A stretch of 8,736 bases of DNA, taken from the IMG/VR virus record IMGVR_UViG_2778261227_000012; one strand, given 5' to 3'. Below, one piece after another: positions 30 to 8,736 of this stretch (position 1 is the first letter of the stretch; each line of letters starts with the position of its first letter). A program made the translations under genes and the position numbers. Source of the DNA: a virus. Taxonomy: Duplodnaviria > Heunggongvirae > Uroviricota > Caudoviricetes. The notes under the pieces are model-generated. The model searched no databases and was not told the origin of the DNA. It saw nothing but the letters and a program-made list of their open reading frames with translations.

Positions 30-51
30 AAATGCCCCTGCGGGGGCATTT
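30..51 (+). terminator. Candidate stem-loop (9-bp perfect inverted repeat AAATGCCCC/GGGGCATTT, 4-nt loop) followed by a weak T-rich tract; possible terminator of an upstream gene outside the window
   Basis: Inverted repeat read directly at 30-38 and 43-51; the T-tract is short (TTTAT), so the terminator call is weak. Confidence 0.3.
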
Positions 52-145
52 ATGGAAACGTAATTAACTCAATAATCACCGGATGGTGAGAGCTTCCTTT
101 TAGCAGAATTCAGCGCGGTGCAGCGCATATAAAGTGGAGAACGAA

Positions 146-682
146 ATGTCATTTATTAAAACTTTTTCCGGGAAGCATTTTTATTATGACAAGATAAATA
201 AAGACGACATCGTGATTAACGATATCGCAGTTTCCCTTTCAAATATCTGTCGCTTTGCAGGACATCTTTCACACTTCTACAGCGTCGCCCAGCATGCGGT
301 GCTTTGCAGCCAGCTGGTACCGCAGGAATTTGCTTTTGAAGCGTTAATGCATGATGCAACAGAAGCATATTGCCAGGACATCCCCGCTCCACTGAAACGC
401 CTTCTTCCTGACTATAAACGGATGGAAGAAAAAATAGATGCCGTAATCCGTGAGAAATACGGGTTACCCCAGGTTATGAGCACGCCTGTGAAATATGCCG
501 ATCTCATCATGCTGGCAACCGAACGCCGCGATCTCGGGCTTGATGATGGCTCTTTCTGGCCTGTACTGGAAGGCATCCCGGCAACAGAGATGTTCAACGT
601 GATTCCACTGGCACCGGGCCATGCCTACGGGATGTTTATGGAACGTTTTAACGAGTTATCGGAGTTACGCAAATGCGCATGA
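146..682 (+). CDS. HD-domain metal-dependent phosphohydrolase (YfdR-like 5'-deoxynucleotidase family), prophage early-region gene
   Basis: ORF track 134..682; I place the start at ATG 146 (GGAGA 6 nt upstream) rather than GTG 134. Product contains an H...HD motif (AGHLSH...LMHDATEAY) typical of the HD phosphohydrolase superfamily. Named by motif and recollection, not by search. Confidence 0.6.
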   Translation: MSFIKTFSGKHFYYDKINKDDIVINDIAVSLSNICRFAGHLSHFYSVAQHAVLCSQLVPQEFAFEALMHDATEAYCQDIPAPLKRLLPDYKRMEEKIDAVIREKYGLPQVMSTPVKYADLIMLATERRDLGLDDGSFWPVLEGIPATEMFNVIPLAPGHAYGMFMERFNELSELRKCA

Positions 683-1035
683 ATGTTTTCGAAATGGAAG
701 GGTTTCTTCGTGGGAGATGTGTACCGCGAGATCTGAAAGTGAATGAAACAGATGCTGAATACCTGGTACGTAAATTCGATGCGCTTGAAGCTAAATGTGC
801 AGCACTGGAAAACAAAGTAATACCAGTGTCAGCTGAACTGCCGCCAGCAAATGAAAGTGTTCTGTTATTTGATGCTAATGGAGAAGGCTGGCTGATTGGC
901 TGGCGTTCTCTCTGGTACACATGGGGGCAAAAAGAAACCGGAGAATGGCAGTGGACATTTCAGGTCGGGGACCTTGAAAACGTCAATATCACTCACTGGG
1001 CAGTAATGCCGAAAGCACCAGAGACTAAGAAATGA
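673..1035 (+). CDS. Hypothetical prophage protein (YfdS-like, 120 aa), Trp-rich C-terminus
   Basis: ORF with GGAG 8 nt upstream of ATG 673; overlaps the stop of the preceding gene by 10 nt (translational coupling); no recognisable catalytic motif. Confidence 0.45.
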   Translation: MRMNVFEMEGFLRGRCVPRDLKVNETDAEYLVRKFDALEAKCAALENKVIPVSAELPPANESVLLFDANGEGWLIGWRSLWYTWGQKETGEWQWTFQVGDLENVNITHWAVMPKAPETKK

Positions 1036-1247
1036 GCGTGATAAAAACTCATACAGGAATTGTTATCACCCGAGACGGTGAAAAGCGGATGAAATTACAT
1101 TCCACTGAAACGTCCTGGGTTGCCGGACGTTGTGAATCCTACGACAAAAAGACTGGTTACCGTTGGGGTGCACCTAACATGCGTCGCCGTCTGCTACTGG
1201 ACAGCATCAGGCCAATAAAACAGGTAGCAACCAGGGAACAAAATTAA
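1032..1247 (+). CDS. Small hypothetical prophage protein (71 aa)
   Basis: ATGA start/stop overlap with the upstream ORF (1032-1035) suggests coupling in the same operon; basic small protein, function unknown. Confidence 0.35.
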   Translation: MSVIKTHTGIVITRDGEKRMKLHSTETSWVAGRCESYDKKTGYRWGAPNMRRRLLLDSIRPIKQVATREQN

Positions 1248-1294
1248 TTATCAGGACTGGAATTTGATATTACTGCCCGTGTGCAGCGGGCTAA

Positions 1295-1513
1295 GTGGAG
1301 AAACATATGCTGAACCTCGATTGTGTTCCAATCTCAACTTATTGCAAAGAAACTGGCGAAACTCCTGAAGCAATAAACAAACGTGTACAGCGCGGTGTTT
1401 GGCGTGAAGGTGTTCAGGTTTTAAAGGTTGAAGGCGTTAAGGAGAGGTGGATTGATCTTAGTGAGGTTGCAAAATGGGCCAGACAAAACTGCTCAAACTA
1501 CCGCGCGGCGTAA
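1295..1513 (+). CDS. Excisionase-like / small DNA-binding recombination directionality factor candidate
   Basis: 72-aa ORF immediately upstream of and overlapping the integrase start (ATG 1474) by 40 nt, the typical xis-int arrangement; GGAG 8 nt upstream of ATG 1295; basic, Trp-containing pattern (RVQRGVWREG...ERWIDLSEVAKW) resembles Xis/AlpA-type winged-helix proteins. Assignment by context and pattern only. Confidence 0.45.
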   Translation: MEKHMLNLDCVPISTYCKETGETPEAINKRVQRGVWREGVQVLKVEGVKERWIDLSEVAKWARQNCSNYRAA

Positions 1514-2640
1514 CAATCAGGAAACACCGCTAGGGCGAAACGATCAATATAACTTTCACCTACAAAGGAGTTAAATGTCGTGAGCCTCTTTCCAATCTGG
1601 AAGTAACACCAAAGAACATTAAATACGCCGAGCGTACACTCGGCGAAATCCATAATAAGATCGAAAGGGGAACATTCATTTATGCAGAATATTTTCCCCG
1701 TTCTGCTCGTTTGAAAATTTTTGGTAATGCTGCTGCAGGCAAAACGGTAAAGATGTACCTGGACGAATATCTTGAAATCTGCGAAACAAGAAAACTTTCA
1801 CCCTCTACGATTGGTGGCTATAAAAAATGCCGTAGTGCGTTAGCCTCACTTCACATTTGCCCTGCAAGTGAATTAACACCAGCAATCCTGAAAGCGTGGA
1901 TTCAAAGCCAGAAAACGACCTTAAAAACAATTCGCAACCAGTTATCTTTCCTGCGGTCAGCACTTGATGAAGCCGTAACCGATGGGGTACTTCAAATTAA
2001 CCCCGTATCGTTGGTAACTGCTTCGCGCTACCAAAGTGATAAGTCAGAAGCAGAAAGCAGCTATGTGGTTGATCCGCTATCACCAGCAGAAGTTGATGCA
2101 TTACTAGCAGCAGCCGGAAACAAACAATGGGAAAATCTGTTCCGGTTCGCCATACATACAGGCCTGCGTAGTTCTGAATTATGTGCCCTACGATGGCATG
2201 ATATCGACTTTGTTGGAAAAACAGCCCATGTTCAGAGCGCAAGTGTTGTCGGAGTTATCAAAGGAACAAAGACAAAAGCCGGTACCCGTAAAGTTGAACT
2301 GACTGAAGAAGCAATGTTGGCGTTGATAAACCAGAAGCCATTTACATTCATGAAGGATGCTACTGTCTTTGAAGATCCAAAGACCAATAAACCCTGGGCA
2401 AGTGCTGATGCAATTAGGAAAAAAGCATGGGTGCCAACATTGCGAAAAGCAGGTATTCGTTACAGAAACCCATATCAAACCAGGCATACATTCGCCACCA
2501 GACATATCAGCCGGGGAGCAAACCTGTTTTGGCTTGCAGCTCAAATGGGGCATAAAGGGCCTGAGATGCTTTTCAGGCACTATGGCTCATATCTGAAGGA
2601 ATATGATGGACAAACAAGCTTGAAGAAGATAACAATATAA
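1474..2640 (+). pseudogene. Tyrosine recombinase (phage integrase with N-terminal arm-DNA-binding domain) interrupted by an in-frame amber codon TAG at 1531-1533 (codon 20)
   Basis: Frame 1 from ATG 1474 reads MGQTKLLKLPRGVTIRKHR-TAG-GETINITFTYKGVKCREPLSNLEVTPKNIKYAERTLGEIHNKIERGTFIYAEYFPRSAR..., the conserved N-terminal pattern of this integrase family (KLPxGVxIR...I.I.F.Y.G.RCRE.L...N.K.AE.....I..G.F.Y...FP.S), continuous across the stop. Downstream catalytic region looks intact (LRSSELCALRWHDIDF; RHTFATRH; MGHK; RHYGSYL with Tyr). The ORF-track start at 1711 is a TTG with no upstream ATG/GTG in frame. Confidence 0.6.
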
Positions 2641-2657
2641 TCCAAGCATGAAACTAT

Positions 2658-2676
2658 TGGCCACAATTTGTGGCCA
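2658..2676. promoter_or_regulatory. Perfect 9-bp inverted repeat TGGCCACAA-T-TTGTGGCCA followed by TTTT; candidate operator or weak terminator between the integrase and the ATPase gene
   Basis: Read directly; lies 18 nt after the integrase stop and 23 nt before ATG 2699; the 9-mer TGGCCACAA recurs at 4457-4465. Confidence 0.4.
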
Positions 2677-2698
2677 TTTTACGGAGCAAGATAGAAAC

Positions 2699-4432
2699 AT
2701 GGCAAATCAAATTACCAAACTAAAAAATATAAATGTTGTGAAGTTTCGCGGACTGAAAAATATAAACATCGAGTTTGGTTCTCGCCTAACTGTTATTTGT
2801 GGTAAAAATGGCACATCTAAATCCACAATTCTTGGCATTATCGCCCAAATATTTAGCTTTACAAAGGACTTTACCAAAAACCCTGAGACTGATTTAACAC
2901 AATATAAAACATTAACAAATGGCAGCTTCAAGTCAGCTTTCAGCGAACATTTTAGGCTTTCAGAACAATTTGATGTTCCTGGTTCAATGGACGTCAAAAT
3001 TAGTGTCTATGATGGTGCATCGAACAAACATCTTGAAAAACTAACATTAGGTTTATACAGCTACAGTGACAGAGATAAATCAAGGCCTGTAGTCAGGGGA
3101 AATGATTCAATACCGGAAAAAAACCAAAGTAGAAACGTTACTCATCCTGTTATTTTTTTAAGCTTAGCACGACTTCTTCCTATTACATTAAGGACTGATT
3201 ACTCAACACGGGATGTTCAGTACATCAATGAAAATTCTGATGAAATCAGAATGATGAGTAACCAACTCTTACTAAAAAACAATGGAAGCTCAGTAACAGC
3301 AACAAAAGGTACTATCGATTCAATGGTTGTCCATGGTGACAATTATGATCACCAATCAGTATCTGTTGGTGAAGATAATGTTGGACAATTAATCCAAGCA
3401 ATTTTTTCATTTAAAAGATTGAAGGAAACTTATTCTGATTATCATGGCGGAATATTGTTAATTGATGAAGCCGATGCAGGTCTTTTCCCTGCTGCACAGT
3501 TAGAGCTAATTAATATTCTAACTAAAGCAGCAAAACAATACGATCTGCAAATAATCATGACCTCGCACTCTCCATTAATAATAGAGGATATCTATAATCG
3601 TTCAAAACAAGATAGTGATAGCTTTAAAACAATATATCTTACAGACACATATGGAGATATTAAAACAAAGAATAATCTTTCATGGACAGATATCCACGCT
3701 GATTTACATGTTGAAACTGTAAAAATTAATGATGACATTTGTCTTCCAAAGGCAAATGTATATTTTGAAGACAAAGAAGGTTTCGACTTTTTCAAACAAT
3801 TGATAACAGATCGAAAAATAAATAAAATATTAAATCCATTAGGGAATATAAATATTAGCTGCTCTGCCATGCTTGACTTAATGGCAAGAAAAATACCAGA
3901 ATTTACAGCTAAAAGCTTGATCGTCTTAGACGGTGATGTTGTTCACGACAATAGTGCTAATGCAAAAAAAGCCAAAAAAGAAAAAAACTTATGTTTGCTT
4001 CCAAGCACCTTACCTCCAGACCAAATGATTTTTGAGTTTTTATATAATTTACCACCTGATGATGCATATTGGGAAAATAAAAATAAATTTACAAAAGCTG
4101 TTTTTATGAAAACAGCTAAAGACATAATTGCAACGCTAAAGATTGGTAACGCTCCGATTGATTTAAAAATCCTTATAGATAATTATAAAAAAGTTAACAA
4201 AAACCATGGCGGGATAGTTAGAAAACTGTTTAAAGATTTTGCACATACGACTCAATTTCAGGCCCAAGTAAAAGGGCGAGTTAAAGATAACCCATATCGA
4301 TATTGGGTCGAGAAAAATCCTGTGCAATCGGATAGCTTCAAGAATGAACTAATAAAGAGTCTTAAAGTTATTATGACAAGTGGACATGGTGTCGATTCTG
4401 CTACCATCTCATCATATCTGTCAGATAACTAA
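2699..4432 (+). CDS. OLD-family (overcoming lysogenization defect-like) nuclease: N-terminal ABC/AAA_21-type ATPase fused to C-terminal TOPRIM-like domain; candidate anti-phage defence protein
   Basis: Walker A LTVICGKNGTSKSTIL; Walker B GGILLIDEADAGLF; H-loop-like IIMTSHSP; C-terminal TOPRIM-like acidic motifs VYFEDKEGFD and SLIVLDGDVV (DxD). Start chosen at ATG 2699 (GGAG 13 nt upstream; N-terminus then matches the usual IxKLxIxNFRGxK lead-in), but ATG 2648 (ORF-track start) cannot be excluded. Gene is visibly AT-rich relative to flanks. Confidence 0.65.
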   Translation: MANQITKLKNINVVKFRGLKNINIEFGSRLTVICGKNGTSKSTILGIIAQIFSFTKDFTKNPETDLTQYKTLTNGSFKSAFSEHFRLSEQFDVPGSMDVKISVYDGASNKHLEKLTLGLYSYSDRDKSRPVVRGNDSIPEKNQSRNVTHPVIFLSLARLLPITLRTDYSTRDVQYINENSDEIRMMSNQLLLKNNGSSVTATKGTIDSMVVHGDNYDHQSVSVGEDNVGQLIQAIFSFKRLKETYSDYHGGILLIDEADAGLFPAAQLELINILTKAAKQYDLQIIMTSHSPLIIEDIYNRSKQDSDSFKTIYLTDTYGDIKTKNNLSWTDIHADLHVETVKINDDICLPKANVYFEDKEGFDFFKQLITDRKINKILNPLGNINISCSAMLDLMARKIPEFTAKSLIVLDGDVVHDNSANAKKAKKEKNLCLLPSTLPPDQMIFEFLYNLPPDDAYWENKNKFTKAVFMKTAKDIIATLKIGNAPIDLKILIDNYKKVNKNHGGIVRKLFKDFAHTTQFQAQVKGRVKDNPYRYWVEKNPVQSDSFKNELIKSLKVIMTSGHGVDSATISSYLSDN

Positions 4433-4440
4433 TTGATTAA

Positions 4441-4479
4441 AAAGGGCTTTATGTGATGGCCACAAAGCCCTTTTTTTGA
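4441..4479 (+). terminator. Rho-independent terminator: 10-bp stem AAAGGGCTTT/AAAGCCCTTT, 13-nt loop, T6 tail
   Basis: Read directly; lies 9 nt after the ATPase stop; the loop contains TGGCCACAA. Confidence 0.6.
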
Positions 4480-4511
4480 TATACTTTAGATCTGACATTT
4501 AGAGGTATCAT

Positions 4512-5411
4512 ATGCGTTTTAACACCCCACTTCGCTATCCTGGCGGTAAAGGCAAGCTTGCAAATTTCATGCTTCGGCTTATTGAAGAAAATAATCTTTC
4601 GCCTATACATTATGCCGAACCATATGCTGGGGGTGCTGGTTTAGCATTGAAACTGTTACATCTAAATGCAGCTGAAAAAATCATCCTTAATGATATTAAT
4701 ATTTCTGTTTATGCTTTTTGGCACAGTGTATTAAATCATGCAGATCAATTATGTTCTTTAATTGAAAGAACTGAAGTTACAATGGATGAATGGTTTAGGC
4801 AGAAAGATATAATTAATAATCCTAAAGACCATGATCTTTTAACAATTGGTTTCTCAACCTTTTTTCTCAATAGAACAAATCGTTCTGGAATATTAAAAGG
4901 TGGAGTAATTGGCGGTAAAAATCAAGAAGGGAAATGGAAGCTTGACGCTCGCTATAATAAGAGTGATTTGATTTCTCGAATCCATAAAATATCAGAAAAT
5001 CGTCACAGAATAGATTTATATAACATGGATGCAATTGATTTCATTAAAAAAATAGTTATTCAATTGCCACAAAACTCATTAACATATTTGGATCCACCTT
5101 ATTACATAAAAGGTAAAGGTTTATATATCAACCATTATAATCATGATGATCATGTTAGGGTTGCAAAAGTCGTACAGAATAATATTAAAACACCTTGGAT
5201 TGTTTCTTACGATAACACTCCTGAGATCCAAGCTATGTATAAGACATCATCATTAGTATATGGAATAAACTACAGTGCTCAAGATCGGTACAAAGGATCT
5301 GAGGTAATGTTCTTCAGTGAACGATTGAAAATCTTTAAAACAGATGATCCAACTAAGGTAAAAGCGCCTGTATTTAAAAGAGGATGTGTTGACGACCACA
5401 TCCAGACATAA
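4512..5411 (+). CDS. Dam-family (D12 class, alpha-type) DNA N6-adenine methyltransferase
   Basis: Motifs in the order of Dam-family enzymes: RYPGGKGKL (Dam WAGGK-like), EPYAGGAG (AdoMet-binding FxGxG), FFLNRTNRSG (Dam LNRxGxNG-like), LTYLDPPYY (catalytic DPPY); AGAGG RBS 7 nt upstream of ATG; AT-rich. Confidence 0.8.
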   Translation: MRFNTPLRYPGGKGKLANFMLRLIEENNLSPIHYAEPYAGGAGLALKLLHLNAAEKIILNDINISVYAFWHSVLNHADQLCSLIERTEVTMDEWFRQKDIINNPKDHDLLTIGFSTFFLNRTNRSGILKGGVIGGKNQEGKWKLDARYNKSDLISRIHKISENRHRIDLYNMDAIDFIKKIVIQLPQNSLTYLDPPYYIKGKGLYINHYNHDDHVRVAKVVQNNIKTPWIVSYDNTPEIQAMYKTSSLVYGINYSAQDRYKGSEVMFFSERLKIFKTDDPTKVKAPVFKRGCVDDHIQT

Positions 5412-5484
5412 AAGGAGCCGCAAAAGATCCGCAGAATAAAATGGTTAGTATTAATCGTTTTATTTCAGCTAATTATAAAAATAC

Positions 5485-5516
5485 GGACTCGGGTTCAACT
5501 CCCGCCAGCTCCACCA
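5485..5516 (+). other. ssrA: 3'-terminal fragment of tmRNA (ssrA): T-arm plus acceptor 3' strand and CCA; attachment-site (att) remnant marking a mobile-element boundary
   Basis: GGACTCGGGTTCAACTCCCGCCAGCTCCACCA: T-loop TTCAACT, 3' acceptor strand CAGCTCC with the U that forms the G3:U70 alanine-identity wobble, discriminator A, CCA. Upstream sequence is AT-rich and not tmRNA-like, so this is a partial copy, not a complete gene. One T-stem position appears unpaired. Confidence 0.7.
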
Positions 5517-5563
5517 AAATTCTCCATCGGTGATTACCAGAGTCATCCGATGAAGTCCTAAGA

Positions 5564-5595
5564 GCCCGCACGGCGCAAGCCCTGCGGGCTTTTTT
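5564..5595 (+). terminator. GC-rich hairpin (GCCCGCA...TGCGGGC) followed by T6; intrinsic terminator downstream of the tmRNA 3' end
   Basis: Read directly; position matches where a native ssrA terminator would sit. Confidence 0.55.
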
Positions 5596-5649
5596 GTGCC
5601 CTCAATTTGTCCCGCGAAGTCCGAAGAAAACTAATTAAATCCGATCCTT

Positions 5650-5703
5650 TTAGGCACCTTGTTAGGCACCTCATAAAGCTTTATTGTTTTTTGAGGTGCC
5701 TAA
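5650..5703. repeat. Three copies of a 10-bp motif (TTAGGCACCT direct x2 at 5650-5659 and 5662-5671; inverted AGGTGCCTAA at 5694-5703) just upstream of the P4-type integrase start; candidate integrase/regulator binding sites
   Basis: Read directly; 19-28 nt upstream of ATG 5722. Confidence 0.35.
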
Positions 5704-5721
5704 AACTATGGAAACCCGGCA

Positions 5722-6777
5722 ATGGCAAGACAAACCAAACCTCTATCCGTTAAAGAAATAGAATCAGCCAAACCCAAGGAGGCGGACTACGTTCTCTATG
5801 ATGGCGATGGCCTTGAGCTACTCATTAAATCCAGCGGGAGTAAAATCTGGCAGTTTCGCTACATTCGCCCTGTCACCAAGAAACGAGCAAAGAAGAGCAT
5901 AGGCTCCTACCCGTCAGTTACCCTTGCCGATGCCAGAAACTACCGTGCAGAGTCCCGCTCACTACTGGCTAAACAGATCGATCCGCAGGAACATCAGCAA
6001 GAACAATTGCGCAGTTCGCTGGAAGCCAAAACCAACACTTTCCAACTCGTAGCTGAACGTTGGTGGAATGTGAAGAAAGCCAGTGTGACAGAGGACTATG
6101 CGGAAGATATCTGGCGCTCTCTTGAAAGAGACGTCTTTCCTGCGATTGGCGACGTTAGCGTTACAGATATTAAAGCTCATACACTGGTTCAGGCCGTACA
6201 ACCGGTTCAGGCCAGAGGAGCACTGGAAACTGTTCGTCGCCTGTGCCAACGTATTAATGAGGTCATGATCTATGCCCAGAACACAGGGCTGATTGATGCT
6301 GTTCCCAGCGTTAATATCGGTAAAGCCTTCGAGAAGCCTCAGAAAAAGAACATGCCCAGCATTCGACCGGATCAGCTACCTCAGTTAATGCAGACGATGC
6401 GAACAGCCAGCATTAGCCTTTCCACACGCTGCCTGTTCATGTGGCAACTTCTTACTATTACCCGCCCTGCCGAAGCGGCTGAAGCTCTCTGGGAAGAGGT
6501 AGACATAGAAGCGCGAGAGTGGAAGATTCCTGCAGCACGCATGAAAATGAACCGCGACCATACTGTTCCATTGTCAGATGAAGCAATTGCGATACTAGAG
6601 ATGATGAAGCCGTTAAGTGGAAATCGAGAATTTATCTTTCCCAGCCGCATCAAGCCAAACCAGCCGATGAACAGTCAGACCGTAAACGCATCGCTAAAAC
6701 GCGCAGGTTTTGGTGGGGTGCTCGTTTCACACGGCCTGCGATCTATCGCCAGTACAGCCCTTAATGAGCAGGGATGA
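5722..6777 (+). pseudogene. P4/CP4-57 (IntA)-type tyrosine integrase, C-terminally truncated (ends ...SHGLRSIASTALNEQG, before the catalytic tyrosine)
   Basis: N-terminus MARQTKPLSVKEIESAKPKEADYVLYDGDGLELLIKSSGSKIWQFRY is the hallmark of P4-family integrases that follow tRNA/tmRNA genes; the H-G-L-R box is present, but the ORF stops before the conserved downstream segment with the second His and active-site Tyr. No other frame continues the homology, so this is truncation or replacement, not a simple frameshift. Confidence 0.6.
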
Positions 6778-6852: not shown

Positions 6853-7425
6853 TTACAAATCAGCTTGAGTTTGAAGTTCCTCTACAGGGTGATAACGATA
6901 AATCGTCGATATACCGATATCGTAAATAATTGCCAACTGTTTCCTGCTATAGCCATTTTTGATCAGCCTTGCTATTTGTTCATGTTGCTCTTTTGTCAGT
7001 TTCGGACGACGTCCACCAATACGCCCCTGTGCACGTGCTGCTTCAAGTCCGGCCAGTGTTCGTTCAACTATTAATTCACGCTCCATTTCCGCTAAAGCCC
7101 CCATGACGTGAAAAAAGAAACGTCCCATGGGTGTTGACGTATCAATGCTGTCTGTAAGACTACGGAAGTTAACCCCTTTTTCCCGCAGTTCCTCAATAAG
7201 AGTGATGAGGTGTTTCATGCTTCTGCCCAGCCTGTCCAGCTTCCAGACAACGAGCGTATCTCCTTCTGATAACGTTCTGAGCAGCTTTTTCAATCCCGGT
7301 CGGGCTGACTTTGTTCCGCTGATTTTATCCTCAAAAATCAGTTCACATCCTGCGCAGTTCAGTGCGTTTCGTTGTAAATCTGTATTCTGGTCATTTGTTG
7401 ACACACGAATGTAGCCAATTTGCAT
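6853..7425 (-). CDS. Serine recombinase, DNA invertase of the Hin/Gin/Pin/Cin family
   Basis: N-terminus MQIGYIRVSTNDQNTDLQRNAL with catalytic Ser in YIRVSTNDQ; conserved LVVWKLDRLGRS, GRFFFHVMGALAEMERELIVERT, C-terminal HTH (ISTIYRY). True start is the internal ATG at 7425-7423 (AAGAGGA RBS upstream on the minus strand); the 65-codon N-terminal extension in the ORF track is not family-like. Confidence 0.85.
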   Translation of the reverse strand: MQIGYIRVSTNDQNTDLQRNALNCAGCELIFEDKISGTKSARPGLKKLLRTLSEGDTLVVWKLDRLGRSMKHLITLIEELREKGVNFRSLTDSIDTSTPMGRFFFHVMGALAEMERELIVERTLAGLEAARAQGRIGGRRPKLTKEQHEQIARLIKNGYSRKQLAIIYDIGISTIYRYHPVEELQTQADL

Positions 7426-7477
7426 GAAAAATATCCTCTTTGTTTTGTTAAAAATACATAGCTGGTATAGGTGGGAG

Positions 7478-7503
7478 TTAAGACGAAAACGTTGGTTTGG
7501 GGG
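7478..7503. promoter_or_regulatory. Candidate invertase crossover site (AAACGTTGGTTT core, resembling the AAACC-NN-GGTTT core of hix/gix sites), overlapping the start of cassette 1 and lying about 55 bp upstream of the invertase start
   Basis: Sequence AGACGAAAACGTTGGTTTGGGGGAAGG; the same core recurs at the start of cassettes 2 and 3 (about 7962-7987 and 8562-8587). Half-site symmetry is imperfect; exact boundaries are uncertain. Confidence 0.3.
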
Positions 7504-7964
7504 AAGGCTCGGCGCTGCCCGTTGGTGTGCCTGTTCCGTGGCCCTCAGCCACACCACCAACGGGCTGGCTGAAATGTAACGGTGCAGCATTTTCTTCTGA
7601 AATGTATCCCAAACTGGCAAAAGCTTACCCCACCAATAAATTACCGGATTTACGGGGTGAATTTATTCGTGGCTGGGATGATGGGCGGGGAATTGATAAT
7701 AGACGCAACCTACTGTCTGCACAGTCTGACACTATTCAGAATATAGTTGGCACTTTTGGACGAACTCAGCTTTTTAAAGATGCTTTAAATTCAGGGCCAT
7801 TTAGTCAAACTGACTCTATATTATCAGTAGGCTTGCAACCAACTGAGAGTATTGAAGGATATGGCGCCTCTGTATGGACATTCGACGCCTCTCGCTCAGT
7901 TCGCACAGCATCTGAAACACGTCCTCGTAACATTGCGTTTAATTACATCGTAAGGGCGGCATAG
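7482..7964 (+). CDS. Tail-fibre C-terminal cassette 1 (phage tail collar domain + variable receptor-binding core + conserved ...ETRPRNIAFNYIVRAA end); promoterless, no ATG start
   Basis: Open in frame from 7482; conserved motifs PWPSATPPTGWLKCNGAAFSSEMYP...LPDLRGEFIRGWDDGRG (tail collar) and NIAFNYIVRAA (P2 H / T-even fibre-type C-terminus); no ATG or RBS, begins 56 nt from the divergent invertase start. Confidence 0.6.
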   Translation, partial: DENVGLGEGSALPVGVPVPWPSATPPTGWLKCNGAAFSSEMYPKLAKAYPTNKLPDLRGEFIRGWDDGRGIDNRRNLLSAQSDTIQNIVGTFGRTQLFKDALNSGPFSQTDSILSVGLQPTESIEGYGASVWTFDASRSVRTASETRPRNIAFNYIVRAA

Positions 7965-8565
7965 AAACGTTGGTTTGGGGGAAGGCTCTGCACTGCCCGT
8001 TGGTGTGCCTGTTCCGTGGCCCTCAGCCACACCGCCAACAGGGTGGCTGAAATGTAACGGCGCAGCATTTTCTTCTGAAATGTACCCCAATCTGGCACAG
8101 GCTTACCCCACGAATAAATTACCGGATTTACGCGGTGAATTTATCCGTGGCTGGGATGACGGACGTGGCGTGGATGCGTGGCGAACATTACTGAGTGCTC
8201 AGGATTTTGCGTTTGAAGATCATGCTCTGGGGCTACCTACCAATCAGGGATATGCAGGTATTGAGAAAGGTAGCACTGAAAATGATGTTTATGCCGCTTT
8301 CTCTGATGGCATGCACTATACAGGGAATGTAACCAGTAGCGGTCAATGGGATGATTATTCTCAGTCAAAAATTTATATCCGTAGTGATGGTAAGCCTGTC
8401 GGAAATAATATTGAGTTAGCTAACTCAAGTGAGGCTTTGCGTTCTTCTTTGCGTACTTATAGAGCCAGTACAGGATGGTATAACCCAGGACTAAACAAAC
8501 CTAAAACAGCTACAGAAACACGTCCGCGCAACGTTGCTTTTAATTACATCGTAAGAGCCGCATGA
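7954..8565 (+). CDS. Tail-fibre C-terminal cassette 2 (same conserved collar N-block and C-terminal block, different and longer variable core); promoterless
   Basis: Open in frame from 7954, overlapping the cassette 1 stop (7962-7964) by 11 nt in another frame; conserved first ~65 codons and last ~16 codons, divergent middle. Confidence 0.6.
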   Translation, partial: GRHRNVGLGEGSALPVGVPVPWPSATPPTGWLKCNGAAFSSEMYPNLAQAYPTNKLPDLRGEFIRGWDDGRGVDAWRTLLSAQDFAFEDHALGLPTNQGYAGIEKGSTENDVYAAFSDGMHYTGNVTSSGQWDDYSQSKIYIRSDGKPVGNNIELANSSEALRSSLRTYRASTGWYNPGLNKPKTATETRPRNVAFNYIVRAA

Positions 8566-8736
8566 AAACGTTGGTTTGGGGGAAGGCTCTGCACTGCCCG
8601 TTGGTGTGCCTGTTCCGTGGCCCTCAGCCACACCGTCAACAGGGTGGCTGAAATGTAACGGCGCAGCATTTTCTTCTGAAATGTACCCCAAACTGGCACA
8701 GGCTTACCCCACCAATAAATTACCGGATTTACGGGG
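8555..8736 (+). CDS. Tail-fibre C-terminal cassette 3, partial (runs off the window end); same conserved collar N-block
   Basis: Open in frame from 8555, overlapping the cassette 2 stop (8563-8565); sequence to 8736 repeats the conserved 5' block and mixes variants seen in copies 1 and 2. Confidence 0.55.

Follow-up and report, generated by a model that had tools for sequence, protein, structure and literature searches.

Nucleases of the OLD family combine an N-terminal ABC ATPase with a C-terminal Toprim domain, and their classes are set by the partner gene, which is either lacking, a UvrD-like helicase, a retron reverse transcriptase or a split AriB (PMC12392090). OLD-type ABC ATPases are also associated with restriction-modification (RM)-like and BREX loci (PMC12839542). 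HEC-04/IbfA is a validated single-gene ABC ATPase-TOPRIM defence, which requires Walker A and the residues E319/D375/D377 and is toxic when induced (bioRxiv 10.1101/2024.01.29.577857). PD-λ-5, finally, consists of the protein PD-Lambda-5_A and a DNA methyltransferase, PD-Lambda-5_B; it was obtained by functional selection from Escherichia coli ECOR7 and protects against nearly all phages tested (PMC9519451). Here we describe a locus that joins parts of these systems, an ATPase-TOPRIM gene followed by a gene for a PD-Lambda-5_B-family adenine methyltransferase, on a stretch of 8,736 nucleotides of caudoviral DNA (IMG/VR record IMGVR_UViG_2778261227_000012), which as a whole is termed the window in the following.

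The linkage of the two genes is tight and ancient, and sequence comparison indicates that they most likely form one functional unit, a prophage-borne phage-defence cassette. The pair fits none of the existing OLD classes, PD-λ-5 as defined, or HEC-04. No PADLOC model or PHROG annotation describes it, and we found no description of a system composed of an ATPase-TOPRIM protein and an adenine methyltransferase in the literature, where a 2020 survey of ABC ATPases in biological conflicts (Krishnan et al.) may touch on such pairs. A preliminary description of the locus, made from the sequence alone, had not recognized the pairing either; the pair is indeed undescribed, yet that description missed that the methyltransferase is the PD-Lambda-5_B component of a validated defence system.

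The evidence for a single unit comes from the neighbourhoods of homologous genes. The loci were scanned with peptide patterns, and the co-occurrence figures hold for relatives that keep those patterns. The survey, with one genome per species, comprised 61 loci from Proteobacteria, Bacteroidota, Actinomycetota, Bacillota and Geobacter. A PD-Lambda-5_B-family methyltransferase gene lies within 6 kb of the ATPase gene in 57 of the 61 species loci, and two of the four exceptions are contig ends (57 of 59 assessable loci). In 53 of these 57 loci the methyltransferase gene is located directly downstream on the same strand, separated by 24-111 nucleotides (median 29). Among 80 viral contigs from IMG/VR, the methyltransferase gene is present in 65, directly downstream in 62; five contigs stop at the ATPase gene, and the 10 that lack a methyltransferase all belong to a clade with about 40% ATPase identity (65 of 75 assessable contigs). 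Homologues of the two genes thus co-occur far beyond this locus, and the pairing is kept even at 28-31% ATPase identity in the Firmicutes Clostridium butyricum and a lactobacillus, in both of which the methyltransferase retains about 50% identity.

The cassette is carried by prophages, an integrative and conjugative element (ICE) and an isolated temperate phage, and its surroundings vary. The pair adjoins a cI-type repressor gene in Pseudomonas aeruginosa prophages, is found between holin and Q in Yersinia prophages, and is located after the lysis genes in Clostridium; in Halomonas the order of the two genes is reversed. An E. coli ICE and an e14-like E. coli prophage at icd both carry the ATPase gene and then the methyltransferase gene. 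The latter prophage (L012, strain L65, 2976-5615) harbours a divergent pair encoding proteins of 569 and 286 amino acids, and part of its methyltransferase gene is about 68% identical at the nucleotide level; the pair occupies the slot between int and att in the opposite orientation to int compared with the window, and the integrase gene is interrupted by IS1. The isolated temperate phage, Citrobacter phage phiNP (OR565852), has the order xis-int-ATPase-methyltransferase, likewise in the int-att slot. In its record the ATPase is annotated, and the 293-amino-acid methyltransferase open reading frame (ORF) just downstream (L079, 5814-6695) is left unannotated.

The two genes also decay together. 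In two loci with a frameshifted methyltransferase gene (L063, L070) the ATPase gene is frameshifted too, and in a third (L076) a badly decayed ATPase gene goes with a methyltransferase match that is partial only. Chance adjacency is ruled out by the conservation statistics. Moreover, conserved neighbourhoods, independence of the insertion site, evolutionary depth and co-decay provide a strong argument against a stand-alone OLD nuclease next to an orphan methyltransferase, and of the two options that the preliminary description had put forward, the coupled system is therefore favoured. If the functions were independent, a class 1-type OLD-like defence nuclease would act uncoupled from a phage methyltransferase that serves self-protection from restriction or prophage gene regulation. 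Solo relatives of the ATPase-TOPRIM protein and the solo-acting HEC-04/IbfA exist, the intergenic region contains a terminator as well as a distinct promoter-like site, and the methyltransferase also works with another partner in PD-λ-5. Nevertheless, we regard independent functions as unlikely, since adjacency, order and spacing are maintained in the 53 loci across four phyla and unrelated insertion sites, the pairing persists at about 30% ATPase identity, both genes are lost together, and the methyltransferases examined always accompany either this ATPase or PD-Lambda-5_A.

The methyltransferase gene (4512-5411, plus strand) encodes a D12-class N6-adenine DNA methyltransferase of 299 amino acids (WP_001212083), with motif I (EPYAGGAG) at 4617-4640 and motif IV (DPPY) at 5091-5102 on the same strand. 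The protein matches MethyltransfD12 in Pfam (2.2e-19), PD-Lambda-5_B in PADLOC (PDLC04018, E 5.1e-124, residues 1-282) and the Type II profile MTase_II (3.7e-107), and it is 51% identical to its counterpart in a P2-hotspot locus whose two genes fit PD-λ-5 in size and family. The protein had been labelled a Dam-family enzyme, which holds for the D12 class; an orthodox, GATC-specific Dam is rejected, as the TIGR00571 equivalog scores 54.1 bits against a cut-off of 114.85. DPPY is present in 54 of the 57 partner methyltransferases, and the other three comprise two frameshifted genes and, at a decayed locus, a match that is partial only. The methyltransferase keeps about 50% identity between phyla and also between two unrelated types of partner.

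These partner types occur singly or together. PD-λ-5 proper, composed of PD-Lambda-5_A and the methyltransferase, is found in a lambdoid prophage of E. coli O121 and in the P2 hotspot. Loci with all three genes (ATPase-TOPRIM, PD-Lambda-5_A and methyltransferase) are present in Enterovibrio, Edaphovirga, Kushneria, two mycobacteria and a metagenome contig. Vibrio phage ValB1MD-2 also carries all three, with PD-Lambda-5_A split in two. In this P2-like phage (NC_055862; L080, 3486-7504) a 517-amino-acid relative of the ATPase-TOPRIM protein is encoded after the repressor gene and convergent with the methyltransferase gene, and the N-terminal and C-terminal halves of PD-Lambda-5_A correspond to gp42 and gp41, respectively.

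The ATPase gene (2699-4432, plus strand) encodes a protein of 577 amino acids in which an ABC-type ATPase is followed by a Toprim-like domain, the predicted nuclease, and then by a helical tail. Both ORFs of the cassette and all motifs quoted for them in the preliminary description were recovered, at 2648/2699-4432 (594/577 amino acids) and 4512-5411. The ORF from the upstream ATG at 2648, which would yield the 594-residue form, exists; homologues support the start codon at 2699 instead, and those outside the Enterobacteriaceae begin with MAN. In the identical E. coli locus the two products are annotated as “AAA family ATPase” (577 amino acids) and “DNA adenine methylase” (299 amino acids). 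Pfam matches comprise AAA_15 (3.8e-15), AAA_21 (4.1e-12), AAA_23 and SMC_N, and they cover the ATPase half only. Protein Data Bank sequence matches (PtuA, retron ATPases, Ts OLD from Thermus scotoductus, AriA) all run via the P-loop or Walker B regions. The top PADLOC matches are PtuA, AriA and GajA, and no PADLOC v2 model matches strongly; in PHROGs the protein falls into phrog_3940, “unknown function” (E 1.7e-200). A database search retrieved 1,109 relatives, and full-length ones (about 560-580 amino acids) are found in Enterobacterales, Pseudomonas, Halomonas, Lysinibacillus and Citrobacter phage phiNP.

Residues are numbered according to the 577-residue form, and invariance was judged in an alignment of 66 homologues. 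Walker A (GKNGTSKS, residues 35-42, 2801-2824) is invariant from G35 to S42. Walker B (LLIDEAD, residues 253-259, 3455-3475), the region that aligns to PtuA and P2 Old, contains the invariant D256 and E257, and T288, H290, S291 and P292 are invariant in the H-loop (TSHSP, residues 288-292, 3560-3574). The Toprim-like core extends over about residues 350-435 (3746-4003), with YFED at the end of strand beta1 and DGD at the end of beta3. It carries the catalytic-type residues E357 (3767-3769) and D411-D413 (3929-3937), and E357/D358 as well as D411/D413 are invariant. The all-helical C-terminal tail (about residues 436-577, 4004-4429) is predicted with a local distance difference test score (pLDDT) above 90, and invariant residues in the tail region include L434, P435, P440, Q442, W458, F469, R508, F511, K512 and P532. 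All these features are on the plus strand.

For the C-terminal domain, the assignment to Toprim depends on structure prediction. An AlphaFold (AF2) model of the ATPase protein, built on the 66-homologue alignment, reached a mean pLDDT of 88. With the whole model, the top Foldseek matches were GajA (8u7i, 8sm3) and Ts OLD (6p74), at E 3e-11 to 1e-10 and probability 1.0, in alignments of about 600-690 columns that span both domains; their TM-scores are about 0.3 owing to a differing domain orientation. Modelled alone, the C-terminal 260 residues gave a pLDDT of 89 and a Toprim-like order of strands and helices, with the Glu after the first strand and the DxD after the third, judged against the Toprim topology reportedly described by Aravind et al. 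in 1998. The isolated C-terminal model retrieved nothing significant in Foldseek (Ts OLD ranked 9th, E 0.9). Pfam and NCBIfam, Toprim_Old and DUF4435 included, yielded zero matches to the C-terminal 260 amino acids of 22 family members even at E 10. With hhalign, the family alignment matched P2 Old at Walker B only and the C-terminal alignment matched nothing, the single-sequence template being too weak. The missing profile match is an absence of match and not evidence for another fold.

The one defence model that reaches the C-terminal domain of family members is HEC-04 of PADLOC, which matches it in 8 of 22 relatives (best 3.9e-6); the C-terminus encoded in the window itself gave no match. 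When a profile built on the C-terminal domain was run against 1.84 billion representative sequences, it returned 443 clusters, including 54 core-family clusters at E up to 1e-30. Second-tier relatives of 500-530 amino acids mostly match the Toprim core only (profile positions 1-155), and only this ATPase family has the helical tail of about 140 residues. That these shorter relatives are simply HEC-04 was rejected, since only one of 10 matched the PADLOC model at 1e-20. From the motifs, the predicted topology and weak, low-Z fold matches, we conclude that the protein is putatively OLD-like, an ATPase-TOPRIM enzyme whose nuclease domain has diverged. Thus, of the ATPase-plus-TOPRIM architecture proposed previously, the ATPase is confirmed by Pfam, and the Toprim part is supported by motifs, predicted topology and weak fold matches, with no profile hidden Markov model (HMM) in its favour: the profile searches that had been proposed matched AAA_15/AAA_21 and MethyltransfD12, and nothing for Toprim_Old or DUF4435.

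Set against the described systems, the locus shares an N-terminal ABC ATPase and a predicted C-terminal Toprim-like domain with Glu and DxD with the OLD family (P2 Old, Ts OLD, GajA, PARIS), and like P2 old the cassette is phage-borne lysogenic-conversion cargo. It differs in a sequence similarity confined to the ATPase motifs, in the weakness of the fold match at the C-terminus and in having a methyltransferase as its conserved partner. Class 1, a single isolated gene, does not apply, given the methyltransferase neighbour in nearly all assessable loci. Classes 2, 3 and 4 (Gabija, retron, PARIS) were rejected, as the ATPase gene in the window is flanked by the genes for an integrase and the methyltransferase, and the partners that define these classes are absent from the neighbourhoods listed. 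With PD-λ-5 (Vassallo et al. 2022) the cassette has in common a methyltransferase of one family, encoded by the second gene, and the form of a two-gene, low-GC cassette in a prophage hotspot. In PD-λ-5, however, the partner is a ParB/HEPN protein of about 500 amino acids, whereas here it is an unrelated 577-residue ABC ATPase-TOPRIM protein. The window contains no PD-Lambda-5_A ORF, and PD-Lambda-5_A is not among the top PADLOC matches of the ATPase (true A proteins score 3.7e-207); PD-λ-5 proper was therefore rejected.

HEC-04/IbfA (Payne et al. 2024; ibfA of an IncI1 plasmid) resembles the ATPase protein in its fused architecture and in the spacing from the Glu to the DxD, 54 residues here versus 56. 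Yet HEC-04 acts alone and comprises about 500-520 amino acids, while the helical tail and the methyltransferase neighbour are specific to the family found in the window. The whole-protein match to HEC-04 is only 2e-16 and driven by the N-terminus, and this, together with the conserved partner gene, places the protein outside HEC-04. IbfA was not retrieved by tblastn with the ATPase against plasmids, and the link to HEC-04 is by HMM only. Type II RM systems are similar in the tight linkage between the gene of a nuclease and that of an adenine methyltransferase, which here looks cognate and has intact S-adenosylmethionine (SAM)-binding and DPPY motifs; they differ in that the window contains no known Type II endonuclease fold and the predicted nuclease would be ATP-dependent and OLD-like. 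Finally, the RM-linked ABC ATPase guards PrrC-EcoprrI and RloA/B also link a nuclease to an adenine methyltransferase, but the two-gene form described here, in contrast to PrrC, lacks a separate restriction enzyme.

Between the two genes, an intrinsic-terminator-like hairpin with a T-run is located at 4439-4477 on the plus strand (hairpin 4439-4475). The terminator noted earlier at this position is real as a structure, with a fold of -17.2 kcal/mol and a z-score of -3.84 that was equalled in 0 of 200 shuffles. A promoter scan revealed, as a consensus match only, the site TGGCCA-17-TATACT with an extended -10 TG (4457-4485, plus strand), which overlaps the descending arm of the terminator. By way of terminator and promoter-like site, the methyltransferase gene may be transcribed independently of the nuclease gene.

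A defence role is suggested by the validated defence function of relatives of each half, PD-λ-5 on the one hand and GajA and HEC-04/IbfA on the other. Regarding the mechanism, we tentatively favour an RM-like variant of OLD that is coupled to methylation. The methyltransferase, endowed with its own promoter-like site, would mark the resident DNA with N6-methyladenine (m6A) at a conserved motif, and the ATP-dependent Toprim nuclease would nick or degrade incoming DNA without the mark; consequently, superinfecting phages would be kept out of lysogens, and losing the cassette would carry a penalty. DNA cleavage by the nuclease, inhibition of the nuclease by methylation and the protection that the cassette gives against phage are inferences. 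Such a mechanism would account for the strict co-occurrence, the retained catalytic motifs of the methyltransferase, the co-decay, the toxicity of induced HEC-04, and the terminator and promoter-like site. For PD-λ-5, cloning required a host lacking mrr (PMC9519451), which implies that its methyltransferase methylates the host genome.

Several observations weigh against methylation-coupled restriction. We know of no characterized OLD nuclease that reads methylation (see also PMC12392090), and the methyltransferase conservation of about 50% across phyla and partner types appears unusual for RM systems, in which specificity diversifies. The ATPase clade of about 40% identity, comprising 10 viral contigs and two Pasteurellaceae chromosomes, has no adjacent D12 methyltransferase gene. 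In viral contigs the solo gene starts 4 nucleotides after a cI-like repressor gene, with an unrelated N6_N4 methyltransferase gene 2.6 kb downstream, and in the Pasteurellaceae (Aggregatibacter) its neighbours are fabA and a permease gene, one on either side; loci of this clade include L065 (5818-7671), L068 (5815-7662) and L146 (4815-6659). The nuclease lineage can thus work alone, and since HEC-04/IbfA and class 1 OLD act alone as well, it would not be intrinsically lethal without a partner methyltransferase. In the complete genome of Diaphorobacter aerolatus (L062) the ATPase gene appears intact and the methyltransferase gene, at about 7700-8600, is frameshifted near codon 35; if real and not a sequencing error, this would be a natural nuclease without its methyltransferase. 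Moreover, PD-λ-5 is strongest against the T-even phages, which withstand ordinary restriction thanks to their modified DNA, and the authors of PD-λ-5 use the term “RM+Abi” (PMC9519451).

Some of these points would be better met if the methyltransferase served as a bait in a guard or abortive infection system, the main alternative, which we consider possible but less likely. Here, the ABC ATPase would sense interference by the phage (Ocr, SAM lyases or other anti-restriction factors), and the Toprim domain would attack nucleic acid of host or phage, possibly tRNA in the manner of PARIS, and kill the infected cell; in the three-gene forms, PD-Lambda-5_A and the methyltransferase would constitute front-line restriction with the ATPase-TOPRIM protein as back-up. 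The three-gene loci fit the “RM+Abi” description of PD-λ-5, and its strong protection against T-even phages fits a guard; the unusual conservation of the methyltransferase sequence is expected of a bait, and the methyltransferase-less relatives are still encoded in superinfection-exclusion positions right after cI. Precedents are available in PARIS, where AriA senses Ocr, and in PrrC, which senses Stp (bioRxiv 10.1101/2024.01.29.577857; PMC12839542). On the other hand, the two-gene form has no separate restriction enzyme to guard, and the prophage would carry the methyltransferase as a bait only. The catalytic motifs of the methyltransferase would be superfluous in a pure bait, yet nearly all loci retain them, and no complex or trigger is known.

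The cassette might represent a fifth OLD class and the first with a methylation-based decision between self and non-self, a reading that we consider possible, though not more likely than not. It would then encode an m6A-gated, ATP-dependent Toprim restriction enzyme, and the methyltransferase would be a portable “hub” for two unrelated effectors (ParB/HEPN and ATPase-TOPRIM), used singly or together; the published PD-λ-5 would be a reduced version within a larger modular family, whose members are found in four or more bacterial phyla and in many temperate phages. OLD nucleases are widespread, and how they discriminate target from self is unclear in most classes. A methyltransferase-linked lineage offers a testable answer, a methylation gate or a guarded bait. 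It could account for the way in which one OLD lineage recognizes its targets, and it could also clarify the mechanistically opaque PD-λ-5, which is recast within a family of three modules (methyltransferase, ParB/HEPN, ATPase-TOPRIM) with exchangeable effectors. Current annotation tools return at most an orphan methyltransferase and an “AAA family ATPase” at this locus; the cassette is probably undercounted when the defence systems of E. coli, P. aeruginosa, Yersinia, Klebsiella and numerous environmental bacteria are inventoried.

In the window, the two genes occupy the slot between int and attR of a prophage in ssrA, which agrees with the AT-rich cargo between an integrase gene and an attachment site reported in the preliminary description. 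The GC content is 0.30-0.36 at 2600-5400, an island that holds both genes, compared with 0.45-0.51 in the flanks. The locus has a 100% identical match in E. coli O155 (NWU_3), which is the source of the gene-order annotation, and this allele of the cassette is found in about 85 of 5,426 complete E. coli genomes. The left border of the cargo slot is a prophage tyrosine integrase gene (1474-2640, plus strand; Phage_integrase 7e-17; start taken from the NWU_3 annotation), with a xis-like ORF just 5' of it (1295-1513, plus strand) and a yfdR-like gene at 134-682, the latter assigned from the ORF listing and the annotation of the identical locus. The right prophage border is the attR core (5484-5516, plus strand), which consists of the displaced last 33 nucleotides of the tmRNA gene ssrA (T-arm, acceptor strand and CCA) and matches the 3' fragment of tmRNA in Rfam (E 1.4e-8, truncated on the 5' side). 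Lysogens at the ssrA site lose homology to the window at 5521 or 5598; this and the tmRNA 3' end at 5484-5516 place the prophage in ssrA. A terminator scan indicated a terminator-like hairpin at 5577-5591 (plus strand), which belongs to the native region downstream of ssrA. In the E. coli genome with the identical locus, the flanking genes belong to a lambdoid, e14-like prophage (ymfK/T/L, rusA, Q, holin).

The prophage setting also bears on whether the two genes might form a non-defence module for DNA repair, replication or epigenetic regulation of the prophage. The combination of ABC ATPase and Toprim is also found in housekeeping settings, the solo gene of Pasteurellaceae lies between fabA and a permease gene, and an archaeal OLD-family ATPase is reported to take part in cell-cycle control. 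The patchy distribution on mobile elements, the low GC content and the moron or hotspot positions point away from such a role, as do the membership of the methyltransferase in a validated defence system and the closest structural and HMM relatives, which are all defence nucleases; we consider a non-defence module very improbable.

Beyond attR, a second integrase gene of the CP4-57 type (intA) starts at 5722 (5722-6777), so that ssrA harbours two integrative elements in tandem. The window is collinear with E. coli NWU_3 at 34-6775 only (99%) and breaks at 6775/6776. Here, the CP4-57-type integrase ends at 351 amino acids, compared with 413 in NWU_3, and joins the region of a pin-type invertase and tail fibres of another element. 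The junction at 6775/6776 was found in no complete E. coli genome, so it is either a strain-specific rearrangement or an assembly chimera. The region that follows (6853-8736) includes a Pin/Gin-type serine invertase gene on the minus strand (Resolvase 3.6e-51), beside which lie two cassettes for tail-fibre C-termini at 7497-7964 and 7975-8565 that share a common start of 40 amino acids. Inverted repeats were sought within the window and none were found, and a 231-nucleotide repeat is present in three direct copies, at 7427, 7905 and 8506. Overall, the region at 6853-8736 looks like a multi-cassette host-range switching region resembling those of P1/p15B-like phage-plasmids.

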